Assembly (NCBI GenBank): GCA_046594925.1
Contig: JBKJQG010000357.1
Span: 3,475 to 67,474, forward strand
Reading direction: 5' to 3'
Length of the DNA stretch: 64,000 nt
Source: Bacteroidia bacterium
GTDB taxonomy: Bacteria > Bacteroidota > Bacteroidia > 2-12-FULL-35-15
The position numbers and the translations under genes were made by a program. The notes under the pieces were generated by a model. The model had not been told where the DNA came from. It did not search any database and saw nothing but the letters and a program-made list of their open reading frames with translations. Numbering within the stretch: the stretch's first letter is position 1; each line of letters opens with the position of its first letter. This document shows positions 15,337-51,907 of the stretch, one piece after another.

Positions 15337-16221
15337 ATGGCAAGAATCGAAATACAAAAGACTTACAAGATTTACATCGGCGGGCAATTCCCGAGAACGG
15401 AATCAGGAAGGTATTATCCTTTGAAAAATAAAAAAGGCGAAGTGCTTGCAAACATTTGTTTGTCTTCCCGCAAAGATTTCAGGAACGCAGAAGTCGCGGC
15501 CCGTGGAGCACAATCAGGTTGGGGTTCAAGAGCAGCATTTAACCGCGCTCAGATCTTATACCGGATTGCGGAAATGCTGGAAGGAAGAAAAGAGCAATTC
15601 ATTTCCGAATTGGTTTTGCAAGGTTCTTCTTCGGCAGCAGCAAAACAGGAAGTTGAACTATCGATAGACCGTATGGTATATTATTCCGGATGGTGTGATA
15701 AATTTCAACAGATCTTCAGTTCTGTAAATCCAGTTGCTTCTTCGCATTTTAATTTTTCGGTTCCCGAGCCGACGGGAGTAGTAGCAATAATAGCCGATGA
15801 AAACACTTCTTTGCTGGGCTTAGTCACGGCCATTGCACCGGTGATTGCCGGAGGAAACGCTTGCATAGTTTTGGCATCCGAAAGCAAACCTTTGTGCGCC
15901 GTTACATTTGCAGAAGTGTTGAATTCATCTGATCTTCCCGGTGGCGTTGTAAATATTCTTACTGGAACTTCAGCCGAATTGCACGAGCATTTCTCCAGTC
16001 ACATGGATGTGAATGCTGTGATCTATTGCAGAAGCAACAAAACAGAAATAAAAGCAATAAAAGAAAATGCTTCTTTAAATGTAAAACGGGTTTTTGTTTA
16101 CAATAAAATAAATATCGCTTCTGATAGAGCGCAAAGTCCGTACTTCATTTTTGACACACAAGAAATAAAGACAACCTGGCATCCGATCGAAAACATTGGG
16201 ACTTCAAAGGCAGGATACTAG
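15337..16221 (+). CDS. truncated ALDH-family paralog (N-terminal/NAD-binding-like region only, catalytic domain absent)
   Basis: Aligns to the first ~300 residues of the upstream ALDH (IYIGGQF..., ...GGNACIVLASE..., LPGGVVNILTG...). It lacks PWNFP, the ELGG motif and the catalytic Cys region. The ORF is intact and starts 10 nt after the ALDH stop. Confidence 0.65.
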   Translation: MARIEIQKTYKIYIGGQFPRTESGRYYPLKNKKGEVLANICLSSRKDFRNAEVAARGAQSGWGSRAAFNRAQILYRIAEMLEGRKEQFISELVLQGSSSAAAKQEVELSIDRMVYYSGWCDKFQQIFSSVNPVASSHFNFSVPEPTGVVAIIADENTSLLGLVTAIAPVIAGGNACIVLASESKPLCAVTFAEVLNSSDLPGGVVNILTGTSAELHEHFSSHMDVNAVIYCRSNKTEIKAIKENASLNVKRVFVYNKINIASDRAQSPYFIFDTQEIKTTWHPIENIGTSKAGY

Positions 16222-16225
16222 AAAA

Positions 16226-17035
16226 ATGGAAAATGGAAAATGGGAAATGGAGGAATTGCTGTTCGAAGCGATTCGAGCGTCTTTAAAAGCAGGAGATGAA
16301 ATCTTAAAAGTGTACGAATCTGATTTTGCAGTGGAGCATAAGGAGGACCGTTCACCTTTGACACTGGCCGACAAAAATGCGCACGCCGTCATTTGCGAAA
16401 CACTAAAAGGCAAGGACATTCCTGTTTTGAGTGAAGAAGGAAGATCAACGGACTATTCAGAAAGAAGTAGATGGGATTATTTTTGGATGGTTGATCCATT
16501 GGATGGAACCAAAGAATTCATAAAGCGCAACGGTGAGTTTACGGTGAACATTGCACTCATTCACAAACAACGGTCCATCCTTGGGGTGATATATGTTCCT
16601 GTTACGAAGATGCTTTATTTTGCTGCAGAAGGAGTCGGCAGCTTCCGGTTTGAGATTACGGACATGATTGCTGATAACATGCATGGAATCCTTTTGCAAT
16701 CAACAAGACTGCCACTTCCGGCCGTAACTAAAAATTTCAGAGTGGTCGCCAGCCGTTCTCACTTGTCGGAAGAAACCCAAATGTTCATAGATGGTTTAAA
16801 GACGGTTCACAAAGAGGTCGAATTCATCTCCTCCGGCAGTTCCATCAAGCTGTGCCTGGTTGCTGAAGGCAGCGCCAATGTTTATCCTCGGTTTGCTCCG
16901 ACGATGGAGTGGGACACTGCTGCAGGGCAGGCAATATGCGAGATTGCTGGAAAAAAGGTAATAGATTATACCACCAATCAAACACTTCTCTACAACAAGG
17001 AAAGCCTCCTGAACAATTGGTTCATTGTTCAATAA
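16226..17035 (+). CDS. cysQ: 3'(2'),5'-bisphosphate nucleotidase (inositol monophosphatase family)
   Basis: IMPase motifs EEG, WMVDPLDGTKEF and the ...DT... region, CysQ-like, about 265 aa. Start chosen at MENGKW. Confidence 0.8.
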   Translation: MENGKWEMEELLFEAIRASLKAGDEILKVYESDFAVEHKEDRSPLTLADKNAHAVICETLKGKDIPVLSEEGRSTDYSERSRWDYFWMVDPLDGTKEFIKRNGEFTVNIALIHKQRSILGVIYVPVTKMLYFAAEGVGSFRFEITDMIADNMHGILLQSTRLPLPAVTKNFRVVASRSHLSEETQMFIDGLKTVHKEVEFISSGSSIKLCLVAEGSANVYPRFAPTMEWDTAAGQAICEIAGKKVIDYTTNQTLLYNKESLLNNWFIVQ

Positions 17036-35744: not shown

Positions 35745-35914
35745 CACTTATCAAGAAAGGCGGAGGGACAGACCCTTAGATGCCTTAGCAACCCTGATAG
35801 TCAGGAGAGTGGAGTACAGAGTCAGGAGAATTTCTCCGAACTCCATTCTTCCAACTCCCTACTCAAAAGAAGGTGCTAATTCCTGTCTCGCATTTATGCG
35901 CGAACAGATAAGTC
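35745..35914 (+). promoter_or_regulatory. SAM-I riboswitch aptamer with an expanded P3 arm
   Basis: Near-consensus blocks CUUAUCAAGAaAGGCGGAGGGAcaGaCCC..GAUGcC...GCAACC and GGUGCUAAUUCCUG, a P4 hairpin cgcau-uu-augcg, and a P1 closing ACAGAUAAG. About 75 nt is inserted in P3. Confidence 0.8.
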
Positions 35915-39732: not shown

Positions 39733-42700
39733 ATGAGTGATATACGGACAGAATTAGAAAGGCGGATACTGGTGATCGATGGTGCAATGGGCACCATGAT
39801 TCAGCAATACAAATTAGAGGAAAAGGATTTTCGTACCAAGCGCTTTGCCGATTGGCACAAAGATCTGAAAGGGAACAATGATCTTTTGTCGATCACTCAA
39901 CCGCACATCATTAAGGCCATTCACAAAGAATACCTGAAAGCGGGAGCCGACATCATTGAGACGAATACCTTCAGTGCCACCACCATCGCCATGGCGGATT
40001 ACGACATGCAGGAATTTGCTTACGAGCTGAATTACGAATCAGCCAAGATTGCCAAAGAGGCAGTATTGGAATATCAAAAAGAGAGCGGAGACACAACCCC
40101 GAAATTTGTAGCAGGCGCTTTTGGCCCGACCAACAGAACACTTTCCCTGTCCCCCAATGTGAACGATCCCGGATTCCGGGCTACCACTTTTGATGAATTG
40201 GTTGTTGCTTATTCCGAACAAGCAAAAGGCTTGATCGAAGGAGGCTGCGACTTACTTTTGGTAGAAACCATTTTTGATACACTTAACGCGAAAGCTGCTT
40301 TGTTCGCCATTCAGAATGTTTGCAAGGAGGAGAACATAAAAATGCCAGTAATGGTTTCCGGAACAATTACGGATGCCAGCGGAAGAACTTTGTCGGGACA
40401 AACCACCGAAGCATTTCTGAACTCCATTTCGCACGTTGATCTTTTGAGTGTTGGTTTGAACTGCGCCTTGGGAGCAAAGGACATGCGTCCTTATTTGGAG
40501 GAACTTTCAGACAAAGCACCGTTTTACGTGAGTGCTTATCCGAATGCCGGTTTGCCCAATCAGTTTGGGGAGTACGATCAGGATGCTCATGAGATGGGAC
40601 ATCAGATAGAAGATTTTTTGCGTGCCGGATTCCTGAACATTGTCGGAGGCTGCTGCGGAACAACTCCAGCTCACATCAAACGCATTGCAGAGTTGGCAAA
40701 AGTTTCCAAGCCGAGGAAGAGACCTGTGGCGGACACGCTGATGCATTTGAGCGGACTGGAACCCTTGACCCTACGTCCTGAAAGTAATTTCATGAACGTG
40801 GGTGAACGAACAAATGTAACAGGTTCTAAAAAGTTCCTGCGATTGATCAATGAAGGAAATTACGAAGAAGCTTTGTCGATTGCCAAAGATCAAGTGGATG
40901 GAGGAGCACAAGTGATTGATGTGAACATGGATGAAGGGATGTTGGATAGTGAAGCCGCCATGACGAAGTTTTTGAATCTTATCGCTTCCGAGCCAGACAT
41001 CAGCAAAGTGCCCATCATGATAGACTCTTCGAAGTGGAGCGTGATCGAGGCGGGATTGAAATGCGTGCAAGGAAAAGCGATCGTGAATTCCATTTCTTTG
41101 AAAGAAGGGGAAGAGAAATTCATTGAGCACGCCAACAAGATAAAACAATACGGCGCGGCTGTAATCGTCATGGCTTTCGACGAGCAAGGCCAGGCGGATA
41201 CTTTGCAACGCAGGATCGACATTTGCAAACGGGCTTACGATGTGCTTGTCGAGAAAGTGAATTTCCCTCCGCAGGATATAATATTCGATCCGAATATTTT
41301 TCCGGTTGCGACCGGAATGGAAGAACACCGCTTGAATGCCCTGGATTTTTTCAATGCAACAAAATGGATCAAAGAAAATCTTCCGCACGCAAAAGTGAGC
41401 GGTGGTGTGAGTAATGTTTCATTTTCTTTCCGTGGGAACGACCACGTGAGAGAGGCGATTCATAGTTCTTTCTTGTACCACGCCGTTAAGAACGGAATGG
41501 ACATGGGAATTGTAAATCCAGCACAGCTACAGGTTTATGACGACATTGAAAAGACTTTGCTGGAGTTGGTAGAAGATGTCTTGCTGAACAGAAGGGATGA
41601 TGCAACGGAAAGATTAGTGGAACATGCAGAATCTTTAAAAGGTGTTACGCGGGAAAAAACTGAAAAGGACGAGGCTTGGAGAAAAGGAACCGTGGAAGAA
41701 AGATTGAGCTATGCTTTGGTAAAAGGATTAGTGGAATACATTGATGTCGATACAGAAGAAGCCAGATTGAAATTGGGCCGACCCTTGCATGTGATCGAAG
41801 GTCCTTTGATGGACGGGATGAATGTGGTGGGTGATTTGTTCGGAAGTGGTAAAATGTTTTTGCCGCAGGTGGTGAAGAGTGCGCGTGTGATGAAGAAGGC
41901 AGTTGCTTATTTGGAACCTTATCTTCAGGCAGAAAAAGAAGCAAACAAATTGGCGGGAATTGTTGGTAACGGAAGAACCAATGCTGGAAAGATCCTGATG
42001 GCGACTGTTAAAGGCGATGTACACGACATCGGTAAGAACATAGTCGGCGTAGTATTGGCCTGTAACAATTATGAAATCATCGATTTGGGTGTAATGGTCT
42101 CTGCAGATAAGATCCTCGAAGAAGCAAAAAAGCAGGAGGTCGACATCATCGGCCTGAGCGGCTTGATCACTCCTTCCTTGGATGAAATGGTGCACGTTGC
42201 CAAGGAAATGGAACGTTTGGGATTTAAAACCCCTTTGCTCATTGGCGGTGCTACCACTTCGAAAGTGCATACTGCCGTAAAGATAGCGCAGAATTATTCC
42301 GGTCCTGTCGTACATGTGAATGATGCAAGTAAGTCCGTTCCCGTTGCCAGCAGCCTGATCTCGGATGAATTGCGTGATGCTTTCATGGCCGATATTACAA
42401 AAGACTATGAGCGTGTTCGTGAGCAAAACAAGAATGCTCAGTCGCAGAATAAATACATTTCCATCGCTGAGGCCCGTGAAAATAAATTTCCGGTCGATTG
42501 GACAAAACGGGAAATCGTAAAACCCAGTTTCATTGGGACTAAAGTCATTACCGATTATCCGATCAATGAGATCGCTGAGTACATTGACTGGACACCGTTT
42601 TTCATTTCCTGGGAGATGAAAGGTTCTTACCCGAAGATCCTGAAAGACCCGACAAGAGGTGAGGAAGCTAGAAAACTTTTTGACGATGCGCAAGCGATGC

Positions 42701-43854
42701 TGAAGAAGATCATTGCTGAAAAATGGTTGCAGGCAAATGCTGTGATCGGAATTTATCCTGCGAAAGCAGTGGGAGATGACATTGAAGTGTATGAGGATGA
42801 AAGCTGCAAAAAATTGGAAACTACATTTCACACTTTGCGTCAACAAACTAAAAAACCAGCAGGCCAATACAATGTAGCACTGTCCGACTTTATGCTTCCC
42901 AAAGACCTCGCCCCCAGCCCCTCTCCGAAGGAGCGGGGAGGCGCTCCGAGATATCATACAACGGATTCAAAGAATTGGAGTCGAAATTTGATTCACGCAA
43001 AGAGTATGCGTAAAGAACCAACCCCTGCTGAGGAAAAATTATGGCATGAGTTACGCAATAGAAAGTTGGAGTCGAAATTCAGAAGACAACATCCAATCGG
43101 ACAATTCATTGCAGATTTTGTTTGCATAGAGCAGAAACTGATCATTGAAGTAGATGGAGAGATACACGATCATCAGAAGGAATATGATGATGGAAGAACG
43201 TATATGCTGGAAGACATAGGATACAGAGTCATTCGCTTTTCCAATGAATCGGTGTTAAAATCGTTTGACGAAGTAATTGCAAAAATCAACGAAGAACTCA
43301 CACCCCTCTCTTTCGGAGAGCGGCCGGGGGTGAGGTCCGAGTGCGACTATATTGGTGCGTTTGCACTAGCAACAGGCTTCGGTATCGACGAACATGTGGC
43401 CCGTTTCGAGAAAGACCACGATGATTATTCAGCCATCATGTTGAAAGCACTTGCCGATCGCTTGGCGGAAGCTTTTGCGGAATTGATGCATAAGAAAGTG
43501 AGAACCGAATTCTGGGGATATGCTAAAGATGAAAATCTTAAAAACGAAGAATTGATCAAAGAGGAATATGCAGGGATTCGTCCCGCTCCAGGCTATCCGG
43601 CCCAACCTGATCATACCGAAAAACCCATTATCTGGAAATTGCTGGATGTGGAGAAGAATACCGGGATGATCTTAACTGAAAGCATGGCCATGGTTCCGAC
43701 GGCTGCTGTAAGTGGCTTGTATTTTGCAAATCCGGCTTCGCATTATTTTGGAATTGGGAAAATTAAGAGGGACCAAGTAGAAGAGTATTCAAAAAGAAAA
43801 GGAATGAGTTTGGATAAAGCTGAACGCTGGTTAGGTCCTAATTTGGCGTACTAA
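39733..43854 (+). CDS. metH: B12-dependent methionine synthase carrying an in-frame ~145-aa DUF559 endonuclease-like insertion in the reactivation domain
   Basis: All four MetH modules are recognisable: Hcy-binding, pterin-binding, the B12 cap/binding DxHxxG-like region ([11 protein letters not shown]), and the AdoMet activation domain (...[15 protein letters not shown]...). The 1,373-aa length compares with about 1,227 aa for canonical MetH. Confidence 0.9.
42907..43333 (+). mobile_element. inserted cassette within metH: REP-like direct repeat, DUF559 (Vsr-like PD-(D/E)XK) module, REP-like direct repeat
   Basis: DUF559 hallmarks: [44 protein letters not shown]......D..R...[14 protein letters not shown]. 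Flanks gcccctctccgaaggagcgggg...ctccgag and acccctctctttcggagagcggccggggg...gtccgag encode SPSPKERGG and PLSFGERPG. Interior GC content is lower than the flanks. The cassette interrupts the segment aligned to E. coli MetH DFVAPKLSGKADYIGAFA. Confidence 0.55.
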
Positions 43855-49712: not shown

Positions 49713-51083
49713 ATGAAAAAAATAATCTGGATCATTGTCGCGGGACTTGTCTTCTTGGTAGCCATCATGATGATGAAGAACTGCTCTGGCAATAAATCAA
49801 TAAAAATTGCTATTGAAAAGGCCGGCAAAAGAAATGTCACTGAATCTGTTTCCGCGAACGGAAAAATTCAGCCAGAAGTGGAAGTGAAGATCAGCTCGGA
49901 TGTATCAGGTGAAATCGTAGAACTTTTTGTGAAAGAAGGTGACCAAGTGAAAAAGGGTGATTTGCTTTGTCGCATCAACCCTTTGATCTATGAGTCCAAT
50001 TCCAGCAGAATGGTGGCAACACTGAACGGAGCGAAAGCCAACCTGGCAAATTCAAAGGCTCGTCTGGAACAAGTGAAAGCAGGGTTTGCAAATTTGGAAG
50101 CCTCCTTCAATAGGAACAAAAAATTATTTGATCAAGGGGCCATTTCTCAATCTGATTTTGACGCAGCCAAAGCTTCTTACGAAGGAGCCAAAGCGGATGT
50201 CAAAGGAGCAGAAGACAATGTGGACGCTTCTGAATACAATGTTAAGAGTACAGAAGCTTCCCTGAAAGAAGCAAATGATAATTTGGCCAAAACAGCTATT
50301 TATTCTCCGGTGAACGGAACGGTTTCCAAATTGAACAAAGAAAAAGGGGAACGCGTTGTGGGGACAGCACAGATGGAAGGAACTGAGATCATGCGCCTGG
50401 CGAATCTTAACGAAATGGAAGTAAGCGTAGAGGTGAATGAGAACGACATTGTCCGCGTACACACCGGTGATACTTCGACGATCGAAGTGGATGCTTACTT
50501 GGGTAGAAAATTCAAAGGCATTGTTACTGAAATTGCAAACTCTGCGAATACTACCGGCGTGACGGCTGAACAAGTGACTAATTTCGTGGTGAAGATCCGC
50601 ATCCTTCAGGAATCTTACATGGATCTTTTAACGGCTAATAATAATGTTGCTCCTTTCCGTCCTGGAATGAGTGCTACAGTGGATGTGCAGACCAAGAAGG
50701 TCTTGAATGTCATCACGGTTCCGATCCAGTCGGTGACTACACGTAACGACAGTACCGAGTACAATCTGGCGAACGGAGGGAAAGAAAAGAAGGATGATGA
50801 AGAAATAGAAGTAAAGAATGACAATGAGAAAAAGGTAAACAACGATGACCTGATCAAGATCCAGGAATGTGTTTTTGTTTTCAGTGCTGCCGACAATAAA
50901 GTAAAGATGGTGAAAGTAAAGACGGGTATTCAGGATAACAATTATATCGAGATTCTTTCCGGCGTGAAAGATGGCGATGAGATTGTGTCGGCTCCCTACA
51001 GCGCGATTGCTAAGGAGTTGAAAGACGGTGACGTGGTGAACAAAGTGGACAAAACGGAATTGTTTTCGACTCCTAAAAAGTAA
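49713..51083 (+). CDS. efflux transporter periplasmic adaptor (HlyD/membrane-fusion protein family)
   Basis: N-terminal TM anchor, coiled-coil hairpin, lipoyl/beta-barrel motifs. There is a K/E/D-rich low-complexity insert (GGKEKKDDEEIEVKNDNEKKVNND) near the C-terminal domain. Confidence 0.75.
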   Translation: MKKIIWIIVAGLVFLVAIMMMKNCSGNKSIKIAIEKAGKRNVTESVSANGKIQPEVEVKISSDVSGEIVELFVKEGDQVKKGDLLCRINPLIYESNSSRMVATLNGAKANLANSKARLEQVKAGFANLEASFNRNKKLFDQGAISQSDFDAAKASYEGAKADVKGAEDNVDASEYNVKSTEASLKEANDNLAKTAIYSPVNGTVSKLNKEKGERVVGTAQMEGTEIMRLANLNEMEVSVEVNENDIVRVHTGDTSTIEVDAYLGRKFKGIVTEIANSANTTGVTAEQVTNFVVKIRILQESYMDLLTANNNVAPFRPGMSATVDVQTKKVLNVITVPIQSVTTRNDSTEYNLANGGKEKKDDEEIEVKNDNEKKVNNDDLIKIQECVFVFSAADNKVKMVKVKTGIQDNNYIEILSGVKDGDEIVSAPYSAIAKELKDGDVVNKVDKTELFSTPKK

Positions 51084-51091
51084 GACGAAAC

Positions 51092-51907
51092 ATGGCTCTC
51101 ATCTTAAATATCGAAACAGCAACTACTGTTTGCAGTGTTTCTCTGGCACGAGATGGCGAGCTACTTTCTTTTAAAGAACAGAATGGGGACTATTCTCATG
51201 CTGAAAATCTGACCCTGTTTATTGAAGACGTTTGCAAACGAGCAAACATTTCTCTCAAAGATGTTGATGCAATTGCTGTGAGCAAAGGCCCGGGTTCATA
51301 TACAGGATTGCGGATTGGAGTGAGTACTGCGAAAGGACTGTGTTATTCTCTCGATAAGCCTTTGATTGCGATTAACACTTTAAAACACCTCGCGTTATCG
51401 GTTCTCCCAATTCTCCCAACTCTCACCACTCCCGACTCCCAACTCCCGACTCCCGACTCCCAACTCCCCACTCCCCACTCCCCACTCCCGACTCCCGACT
51501 CCCAACTCCCAACTCCCAACTCCCAACTCCCGACTCCCAACTCCCCACTCCCCACTCATTTGTGTCCCATGCTCGATGCAAGACGGATGGAAGTGTACTG
51601 TGCAGTTTATGATTCCAAAGGAAATGAAGTGAGAGCGACTGCCGCCGAAATCATTGATGAAAATTCTTTTGGGGAGATTTTCAAAACAAGCAAAATTGTT
51701 TTTTTTGGTGATGGCGCTGCTAAATGCAAAGGAGTTCTTTCACACAACATTAATGCTGTTTTTCTGGATGACATTGTTCCTTCTGCTAAAGACATGATTA
51801 AACTTGCTGAGGAGGCTTTTAATGCAAAAACTTTTGAGGATGTAGCTTACTTTGAACCGTTCTACCTGAAAGATTTTGTGGCTGGAAAAAAGAAAGGGGA
51901 AGCCTAG
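51092..51907 (+). CDS. tsaB: tRNA threonylcarbamoyladenosine biosynthesis protein TsaB (YeaZ) with an in-frame low-complexity insertion
   Basis: N-terminal LILNIETATTVCSVSLARDGELL...AVSKGPGSYTGLRIGVSTAKGL..S...PLIAINTL and C-terminal ..LDARRMEVY are typical TsaB. An about 45-aa PTPDSQLPTPDSQL... tract is inserted between them. Confidence 0.8.
   Translation: MALILNIETATTVCSVSLARDGELLSFKEQNGDYSHAENLTLFIEDVCKRANISLKDVDAIAVSKGPGSYTGLRIGVSTAKGLCYSLDKPLIAINTLKHLALSVLPILPTLTTPDSQLPTPDSQLPTPHSPLPTPDSQLPTPNSQLPTPNSPLPTHLCPMLDARRMEVYCAVYDSKGNEVRATAAEIIDENSFGEIFKTSKIVFFGDGAAKCKGVLSHNINAVFLDDIVPSAKDMIKLAEEAFNAKTFEDVAYFEPFYLKDFVAGKKKGEA
51403..51556 (+). repeat. heptanucleotide microsatellite (ACTCCCN)~22 inside tsaB
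   Basis: actcccg/actccca/actcccc units in perfect tandem. Every three units (21 nt) encode a 7-aa (D/N/H)S(Q/P)LPTP peptide repeat. Confidence 0.9.

Follow-up and report, generated by a model that had tools for sequence, protein, structure and literature searches.

The tsaB gene in a 64-kb stretch of Bacteroidia bacterium DNA (contig JBKJQG010000357.1; the whole stretch is called the window below) contains a long tract of heptanucleotide repeats, (ACTCCCN)n, which lies in frame between the two conserved halves of its product. The tract is genuine and, for an in-frame array, unusually long; it belongs to an established class of repeats, the prokaryotic heptamer simple sequence repeats (SSRs), and is most likely a tolerated expansion by slippage. 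Relatives share short in-frame heptamer arrays at the same TsaB site, with units that differ by species, and this is the new element of the finding. From this sequence comparison the tract is most likely the expansion of an array that already existed in relatives, rather than a new insertion into a conserved gene.

Tandem Repeats Finder (TRF) reports the array at 51413–51557, with a period of 7, 20.4 copies and a score of 188. The two-unit pattern ACTCCCNACTCCC, allowing at most one mismatch, has 17 overlapping matches in the 64-kb window, all of them in 51428–51552. The number expected from dinucleotide-preserving shuffles is 0.11, so the array is far above chance. These searches confirm the heptamer array described in an earlier note on this DNA, which had put it at about 22 perfect units. 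That count was too high, parsing unit by unit gives 18 perfect units, a four-nucleotide partial unit and about three degenerate leading units (Table 1), and the perfect and partial units together come to about 18.6. The last of the leading units, CTCTCACC, falls in the register of the array as the 9-nt unit ACTCTCACC (51419–51427), which is 2 nt over a heptamer, and TRF assigns the leading degenerate segment (51402–51424) a period of 9 with 2.6 copies. Over the 18 perfect units the seventh base is G in six, A in seven, C in five and never T, the remaining six positions are invariant. The longest exact repeat inside the tract is 32 nt, limited by the variable seventh base. A search of the seventh-base pattern for higher-order 21-nt or block structure found this single internal repeat and nothing more. 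The tract has a GC content of 66%, against 43% for the window, and a strongly negative GC skew; its minus (template) strand reads (GGGAGTN)n. An Rfam scan gave no match at the tract, and a pattern search found no further array of the ACTCCCN unit in the window.

The gene that contains the tract is tsaB. TIGR03725 represents TsaB/YeaZ, the type 1 dimerization subunit of the TsaBDE complex for threonylcarbamoyladenosine (t6A). This profile matches the product at 1.8e-48 with 165.3 bits, against a cut-off of 69.3, and its positions 1–212 of 212 are matched in one stretch over residues 4–260. PF00814 also matches. The sequence GPGSYTGLRIG, which contains the GPGxxTGxR motif, is invariant across the aligned homologues. 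In a phmmer comparison with the PDB, residues 1–101 align with residues 7–106 of Pseudomonas aeruginosa YeaZ and residues 158–268 with its residues 119–230; the P. aeruginosa protein spans the corresponding gap with 12 residues. An AlphaFold2 model built on 71 homologues has a mean predicted local distance difference test score (pLDDT) of 82.8, with 168 residues at 90 or above. The best Foldseek matches of this model are YeaZ/TsaB chains (4y0w, 5br9, 1okj, 4ydu and 6s84), with target-normalised template modelling (TM) scores of 0.74–0.83. The two-subdomain YeaZ fold is thus confidently predicted despite the tract. TsaB's C-terminal tail contributes to the interface with TsaD (PMC9654439).

In the model residues 112–154 are coil, placed between the helix that closes the N-terminal subdomain and the strand 155–162, which is the first strand of the C-terminal subdomain. 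Block-mean pLDDT falls to 46–58 over roughly residues 111–150. The tract is therefore predicted by the model to be translated as a disordered linker between two conserved halves. The identification of the gene as tsaB, the in-frame position of the tract between conserved N- and C-terminal halves and the unusual Pro/Thr-rich linker had all been proposed in the earlier note, and the profile match, the open reading frame (ORF) and the model bear them out; the translated tract is rich in Pro, Thr, Ser and Gln. No second copy of tsaB was found within the window.

The linker was compared in the best 120 matches to the protein, all of which come from uncultured Bacteroidota. The loop was defined as the segment between K-P-L-I-A-I-N-T-L and C-P-M-L-D-A-R. 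It is hypervariable, usually 21–22 residues long with a range of 15–199, and the loop of the window protein exceeds the modal loop by 38 residues. No clear pattern of a 7-residue lattice was seen among the loop lengths of these 120 homologues. The loops contain Gln/Asn-rich runs, in some homologues a GC-rich hairpin translated as L-S-E-G-E-G, and in P0010–P0012 (DNA: L242) one or two copies of an element resembling repetitive extragenic palindromic (REP) sequences, translated as V-T-L-S-G-V-E-G. In P0040, P0054 and P0103 a complete DUF559 / MTES_1575 endonuclease domain lies inside the loop. On this comparison the interdomain loop of TsaB clearly tolerates insertions: it has accommodated such a range of lengths, REP-like repeats and a whole DUF559 domain. 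The REP-like GC-rich element (GTCACCCTGAGC...GGAGTCGAAGGG) is found in the TsaB loop at L242 1001–1762 and L243 1300–1480, and in proteins P0010–P0012 and P0014. In one scaffold (L243) an N-gap within this element gives a falsely 'split' tsaB.

Heptamer arrays are present at the orthologous site in relatives. The closest relative (P0002, locus L001), with an identity of about 80% once the loop is disregarded, has (ACTCCCA)3 followed by ACTCCCG at the same position, and its residues S-I-L-P-K-L-P-T are homologous to the degenerate leading units of the window tract. P0008 (L002) has (ACTCCCA)3 at the same position. Both arrays directly precede the codons for L-x-C-P-M-L-D-A-R. For three further homologues (L241, L239 and L240) heptamer DNA was predicted from the loop peptides first and the DNA was then fetched; the predictions were borne out in all three (Table 1). 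The arrays of the relatives end 9–15 nt ahead of TGYCCNATG, as does that of the window. A perfect in-frame (TCCAGGT)8.6 array occupies the same loop position in L246 (620–690; protein P0255, 249 residues). A further assembly from this species (L245, 1–53) stops inside the array. Fragments provide the other units ATTCGCA, TCGGTAC and ATCAACG. The earlier note had looked to related strains for the presence and copy number of the tract; arrays of 3–5 units, and in one case 8.6, are found at the same site, but length does not vary within the species cluster of P0002.

Runs of at least six residues that could be encoded by a perfect heptamer repeat occur in 38 of the 120 homologues, and every run is in the loop. 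Counted as hexapeptides, 108 of 2080 in the loop are heptamer-encodable and 0 of 21,889 elsewhere in the protein, although the homologues are phylogenetically related and the nominal significance is inflated. Despite this kinship the heptamer units differ among lineages. Because the type of unit varies among homologues that are equally near to the window protein (about 81–83% core identity), the arrays must turn over more quickly than the protein diverges. Distant TsaB proteins from an unselected metagenome sample (45–61% identity) have period-7 runs in the loop in L160, L163 and L206, and by eye in L161; in the loop of L235 an array of 8-mers precedes one of 7-mers. Exact tandem runs in the loops of distant relatives have period 7 in three loci and period 8 in one, and there are none in 36,288 nt of their flanking tsaB sequence. 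Eight of the ten exact arrays of period 4–12 in 284 kb of gathered Bacteroidota DNA have period 7. Six of the ten lie in the TsaB loop, an enrichment which is biased upward as five of the six loci were picked on hints from the loop.

Table 1. Features of the tsaB locus of the window and heptamer arrays in the TsaB loop of relatives.
Feature	Position	Strand	Remarks
Efflux-pump periplasmic adaptor gene	49713..51083	+	Upstream neighbour; ORF list
tsaB ORF	51092..51907	+	271 residues including the tract; stop at 51905–51907; ORF list, TIGR03725, PF00814
N-terminal ASKHA subdomain	51092..51424	+	Residues 1–111, closing helix 96–111; phmmer against PDB, AlphaFold2
Degenerate leading units, about three	51402..51427	+	TTCTCCCAA twice, then CTCTCACC; unit parsing
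18 perfect ACTCCCN units	51428..51553	+	Encode residues 113–154 (42 residues), TP[DNH]S[QP]LP x6; unit-by-unit parsing
Partial 19th unit, ACTC	51554..51557	+	Leads into the ...CATTTGTGTCCCATG junction
C-terminal subdomain and tail	51554..51904	+	Residues 155–271; lost on any change of ±1 or ±2 units
AACTCTC array, L241 (P0038)			5.0 copies; TsaB loop
CAAATCT array, L239 (P0063)			4.1 copies; TsaB loop
RTTTCAA array, L240 (P0003)			5.3 copies; TsaB loop

We consider it probable that the tract is a tolerated expansion of a heptanucleotide microsatellite by slippage in a permissive linker of TsaB, and that it is not a regulatory device. An array of 3–5 units would already have been present at the linker position in the Bacteroidota lineage, and replication slippage would have enlarged it from about 4 to about 18.6 units, roughly four-fold. 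The linker being permissive, the array would be translated as about 40 residues of extra disordered peptide. Purifying selection on tsaB would retain only alleles in which the total length preserves the frame, and changes in unit number not divisible by three would be offset by small indels. The loop of the window gene is 114 nt (38 codons) longer than that of P0002, which equals 16 units (112 nt) and the 2 extra nt of ACTCTCACC; this bookkeeping fits a history of unit changes that were presumably compensated in this way. The expansion presumably arose by slippage, as a by-product that is probably neutral or slightly costly, the cost being the fraction of progeny with a frameshifted, truncated TsaB. 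TsaB itself presumably still works with the insert. The 15–199 residues tolerated here by relatives are indirect evidence that an active complex with TsaD and TsaE may still form.

Several observations weigh against this account. The copy number of the array rests on a single metagenome-type contig. The array may be unstable, by analogy with the arrays of 13–24 heptamers that phase-vary in Haemophilus (PMC8262952). The short arrays of the relatives are near-perfect within species yet differ between species, which implies ongoing turnover, and since every single-unit step is a frameshift such turnover is hard to square with simple neutrality. Variation within the tract is limited to the seventh base, and no synonymous change is seen at the six remaining positions. 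Short arrays stay internally perfect and yet change their unit between species, even though each single-unit step shifts the frame of a gene whose pathway model bacteria cannot do without.

The earlier note had seen in the tract the classic material of a contingency locus. Slippage of the 18 units would then toggle tsaB between ON and OFF at a high rate, and subpopulations would arise in which t6A is scarce or absent and which might, for example, be slow-growing or stress-tolerant. The array is long, it is inside an ORF and the length of its unit is not divisible by three; in H. influenzae, heptamer arrays of comparable length do phase-vary (PMC8262952). Simulation agrees with the note that adding or removing one or two units frameshifts tsaB: a stop codon follows 15–30 codons past the tract and the products, of 168–184 residues, are without the C-terminal subdomain, while changes of three units keep the frame. 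An ATG just past the tract (M160) could in principle express the C-terminal half separately. A switch is nevertheless unlikely, and the contingency reading is unsupported by the alleles available. A dispensable, environment-facing function would be expected of an SSR contingency locus, whereas tsaB is a housekeeping gene; the t6A pathway is universal, and the model bacteria studied do not survive depletion of its genes tsaC and tsaD (PMC9654439). The tract lies in the middle of the gene, and no OFF allele, out-of-frame allele or length variant was found among the sequences compared. Six members of the P0002 species cluster (at least 90% identical) have an identical 4-unit tract, and the two assemblies of the CCAGGTT lineage (L245 and L246) are compatible. 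The mixed seventh base argues against a recent homogenisation of the array. No sequence from the species of the window came up in a contig look-up of the exact protein for same-species alleles, in a search with the full-length protein (next-best match at about 80% identity when the tract is left aside), in one with the C-terminal half for fragments or OFF alleles (best match 75% identity) or, among the matches listed, in a metagenome scan (best identity there 61%). C-terminal-only TsaB entries are numerous, and those checked reflect an N-gap or contig ends in the loop. 'Split' TsaB fragments were considered as candidate frameshifts and rejected, as the apparent splits that were checked are due to the assemblies: the REP-like repeats of L243 are interrupted by an N-gap, and in L244 and L245 the contig stops. 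It is similarly doubtful that the linker in a large Bacteroidota clade is a persistent, fast-turnover heptamer microsatellite, keeping the period of 7 and not the unit, with the 18-unit allele of the window acting on this built-in frameshift-prone site as a high-frequency ON/OFF or split-gene t6A switch for bet-hedging via translational fidelity or growth rate.

The remaining explanations concern the tract as DNA. It could be real but assembled with the wrong length or frame, by collapse or expansion in a metagenome-assembled contig, or it could be chimeric. The exact protein is known from one NCBI contig only (68,667 nt), other assemblies break in the same TsaB loop (L243, L244 and L245), and the Bacteroidales contig L101 ends inside an ACTCCC-type array. 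Against this, the assembled length keeps the frame, which had a prior chance of 1 in 3, both junctions of the tract match those of relatives, and the ACTCCC unit is found at the same site in relatives, so the locus is real; with a longest exact internal repeat of 32 nt the tract can be resolved by longer k-mers or reads. It is probably not an assembly artefact, and we regard such an error as improbable. A functional nucleic-acid element, in which the (GGGAGTN)n template strand forms G-quadruplexes (G4) that modulate transcription or replication of tsaB, is very unlikely. The minus strand does have 20 G3 runs, spaced by 4 nt, and no fewer than 4 canonical G4 motifs that do not overlap, against no G3 run on the plus strand, its ViennaRNA fold is -44 kcal/mol with G-quadruplex and -17 without, and related G3N4 heptamers form G4 in vitro (PMC4692102). 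Among the matches listed (at least 120 loci), arrays of at least four ACTCCCV units often come from filamentous cyanobacteria, Lysobacterales and Acidobacteriota and rarely from Bacteroidota. The corresponding arrays of relatives (AACTCTC, CAAATCT and RTTTCAA), however, lack runs of G or C, and what is conserved is therefore not the potential for G4; the published class of G4 heptamers is mainly intergenic with four units preferred (PMC4692102), and the tsaB array is the only one of its unit in the window. The tract could also be a member or remnant of a GC-rich REP-like or mobile family, inserted into tsaB, and the earlier note had pointed to a resemblance to GC-rich sequences at 42907 and 43301. 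The tract is GC-rich relative to its surroundings, and in P0040, P0054 and P0103 an element of the kind at 42907 and 43301, together with its DUF559 domain, occupies the same TsaB loop; this is the one connection between the two, and an indirect one. The sequences at 42907 and 43301 are the inverted flanks of a DUF559 insert in metH; they contain no ACTCCC repeat and share no sequence with the tract, and its repeat pattern is unmatched outside 51428–51552. The tract has no inverted repeat or hairpin (plus-strand minimum free energy -2.3 kcal/mol), and the homologous short arrays of relatives account for its origin. An origin from this family is effectively refuted. A viral origin was also considered and rejected: 36 viral contigs have 4–8 units, mostly ACTCCCT, and these are GC-rich contigs that are unrelated.

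Heptamers are reported to be the most abundant class of long SSRs in prokaryotes (Mrazek 2007, as summarised in PMC4679880 and PMC4692102); polymerase slippage is the proposed cause and polymerase–DNA contacts are a possible reason for their prevalence. The tsaB tract resembles the 7-nt long SSRs of that survey in its head-to-tail heptamers and presumed origin by slippage. The surveys so summarised report that coding regions are depleted of units whose length is not divisible by three, whereas the tsaB array is in frame in a core gene, and unlike the surveyed SSRs a heptamer array recurs at the orthologous tsaB site across a clade.

The Xanthomonas and Nostoc arrays of GGGNATC and GGGGA(C/T)T (Rehm et al. 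2015, PMC4692102) have G3N4 on one strand, as does the tsaB tract, and a similar size range (2–26 units); of those in Nostoc, 32% lie within genes. The tsaB tract, with a G3 run in each of at least four units, follows the G3+N1-7 rule of this class, but its homologues at the same site are not G-rich. These arrays and the cyanobacterial short tandemly repeated repetitive (STRR) arrays are dispersed through genomes, mostly intergenic and usually made of uniform units, whereas the window has one array of the tsaB unit in 64 kb, with a mixed seventh base. The unit GGGAGTN / ACTCCCN also differs from GGGNATC, GGGGA(C/T)T and the STRR units listed in PMC4692102, although ACTCCCV itself is frequent in filamentous cyanobacteria among the matches listed. 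In 146 arrays of the ACTCCCV unit sampled from species-representative genomes, most have 4 units and the maximum is 19.

The (ATCTTTC)n repeats of H. influenzae hmw1A and hmw2A, with 13–24 slippage-variable units (PMC8262952), belong to a heptamer length class akin to the tsaB tract. They are found in a promoter, where they tune the transcription of a surface adhesin and their polymorphism is documented, whereas the tsaB array is inside a housekeeping ORF. The tetranucleotide loci in the lipopolysaccharide and restriction-modification genes of H. influenzae (PMC2651432) share with tsaB a unit in the ORF that is not a multiple of three. Typical intragenic SSR loci are near the 5' end, in genes of dispensable function, and have ON/OFF alleles (PMC2651432); none of these features is seen in tsaB. 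The TAACTGA repeats of Beggiatoaceae, Cyanobacteria and a few Bacteroidetes (PMC4679880) are also heptamers, with up to 43 copies. They contain stop codons when read forward and lie mostly just upstream of start codons (PMC4679880), and the tsaB unit is different in sequence.

Upstream of tsaB is the gene for an efflux-pump periplasmic adaptor, and tsaB starts 9 nt after its stop codon. The order of adaptor and tsaB is kept in L002, L242 and L246, and in L002 a gene for an outer-membrane factor is also present upstream. This conserved gene order suggests that tsaB is co-transcribed with an efflux operon.

Heptamer arrays were also seen at other places. Outside the loop, exact arrays are present in three distant tsaB loci: ATTTTCA x4.4 in L199 (1465–1495), TCTAAAA x3.9 in L232 (2154–2180) and AATTTTC x3.6 in L200 (3359–3383). 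One of them is just upstream of the tsaB match, one is at the 3' end, and that of L200 is about 1.2 kb downstream. L101, from a Bacteroidales metagenome-assembled genome (DAOORA010000099.1), ends within an array of about 20 ACTCCCR units (2280–2393), which by eye is outside the adjacent gene and would be intergenic; its seventh base shows the same mix of G and A as the tsaB tract. The ACTCCC-type unit thus forms long arrays elsewhere in Bacteroidota too, and such arrays break assemblies. Within the window a second heptamer array, (AAAATGG) in about 4 copies at 16223–16251, lies directly past the stop codon of the upstream ORF and at the start of a 279-residue ORF (16196–17035). Each AAAATGG unit has an ATG, which gives potential start codons in all three frames.

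The metH ORF of the window (39733–43854, 1373 residues) contains an in-frame DUF559 / MTES_1575 endonuclease domain at residues 1087–1189 (PF04480, 2.9e-35). The insert, at about 42900–43340, interrupts the B12 activation domain, and imperfect inverted repeats rich in GC lie on its two sides at about 42907 and about 43301. This insert is the same type of element that is in frame in the TsaB loop of P0040, P0054 and P0103. It has the appearance of a mobile endonuclease module translated within its host protein, with no obvious features of an intein or intron. The sole Rfam match in the window is an S-adenosylmethionine (SAM) riboswitch (RF00162) at 35745–35914 on the plus strand, with 74.6 bits.

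The tsaB tract is among the longest in-frame arrays for the ACTCCC unit, given the maximum of 19 in the arrays sampled. Tracts of this kind break assemblies and lead to 'partial' or 'split' tsaB calls, and caution is needed in annotation. If the array were unstable in vivo, it would give a rare stochastic switching of a universal tRNA-modification pathway. The recurrence of heptamers with differing units at the same codon position provides a natural system in which to study the birth, homogenisation and, against strong purifying selection, frame retention of repeats that are not multiples of three, and to ask why prokaryotes favour units of 7 nt.

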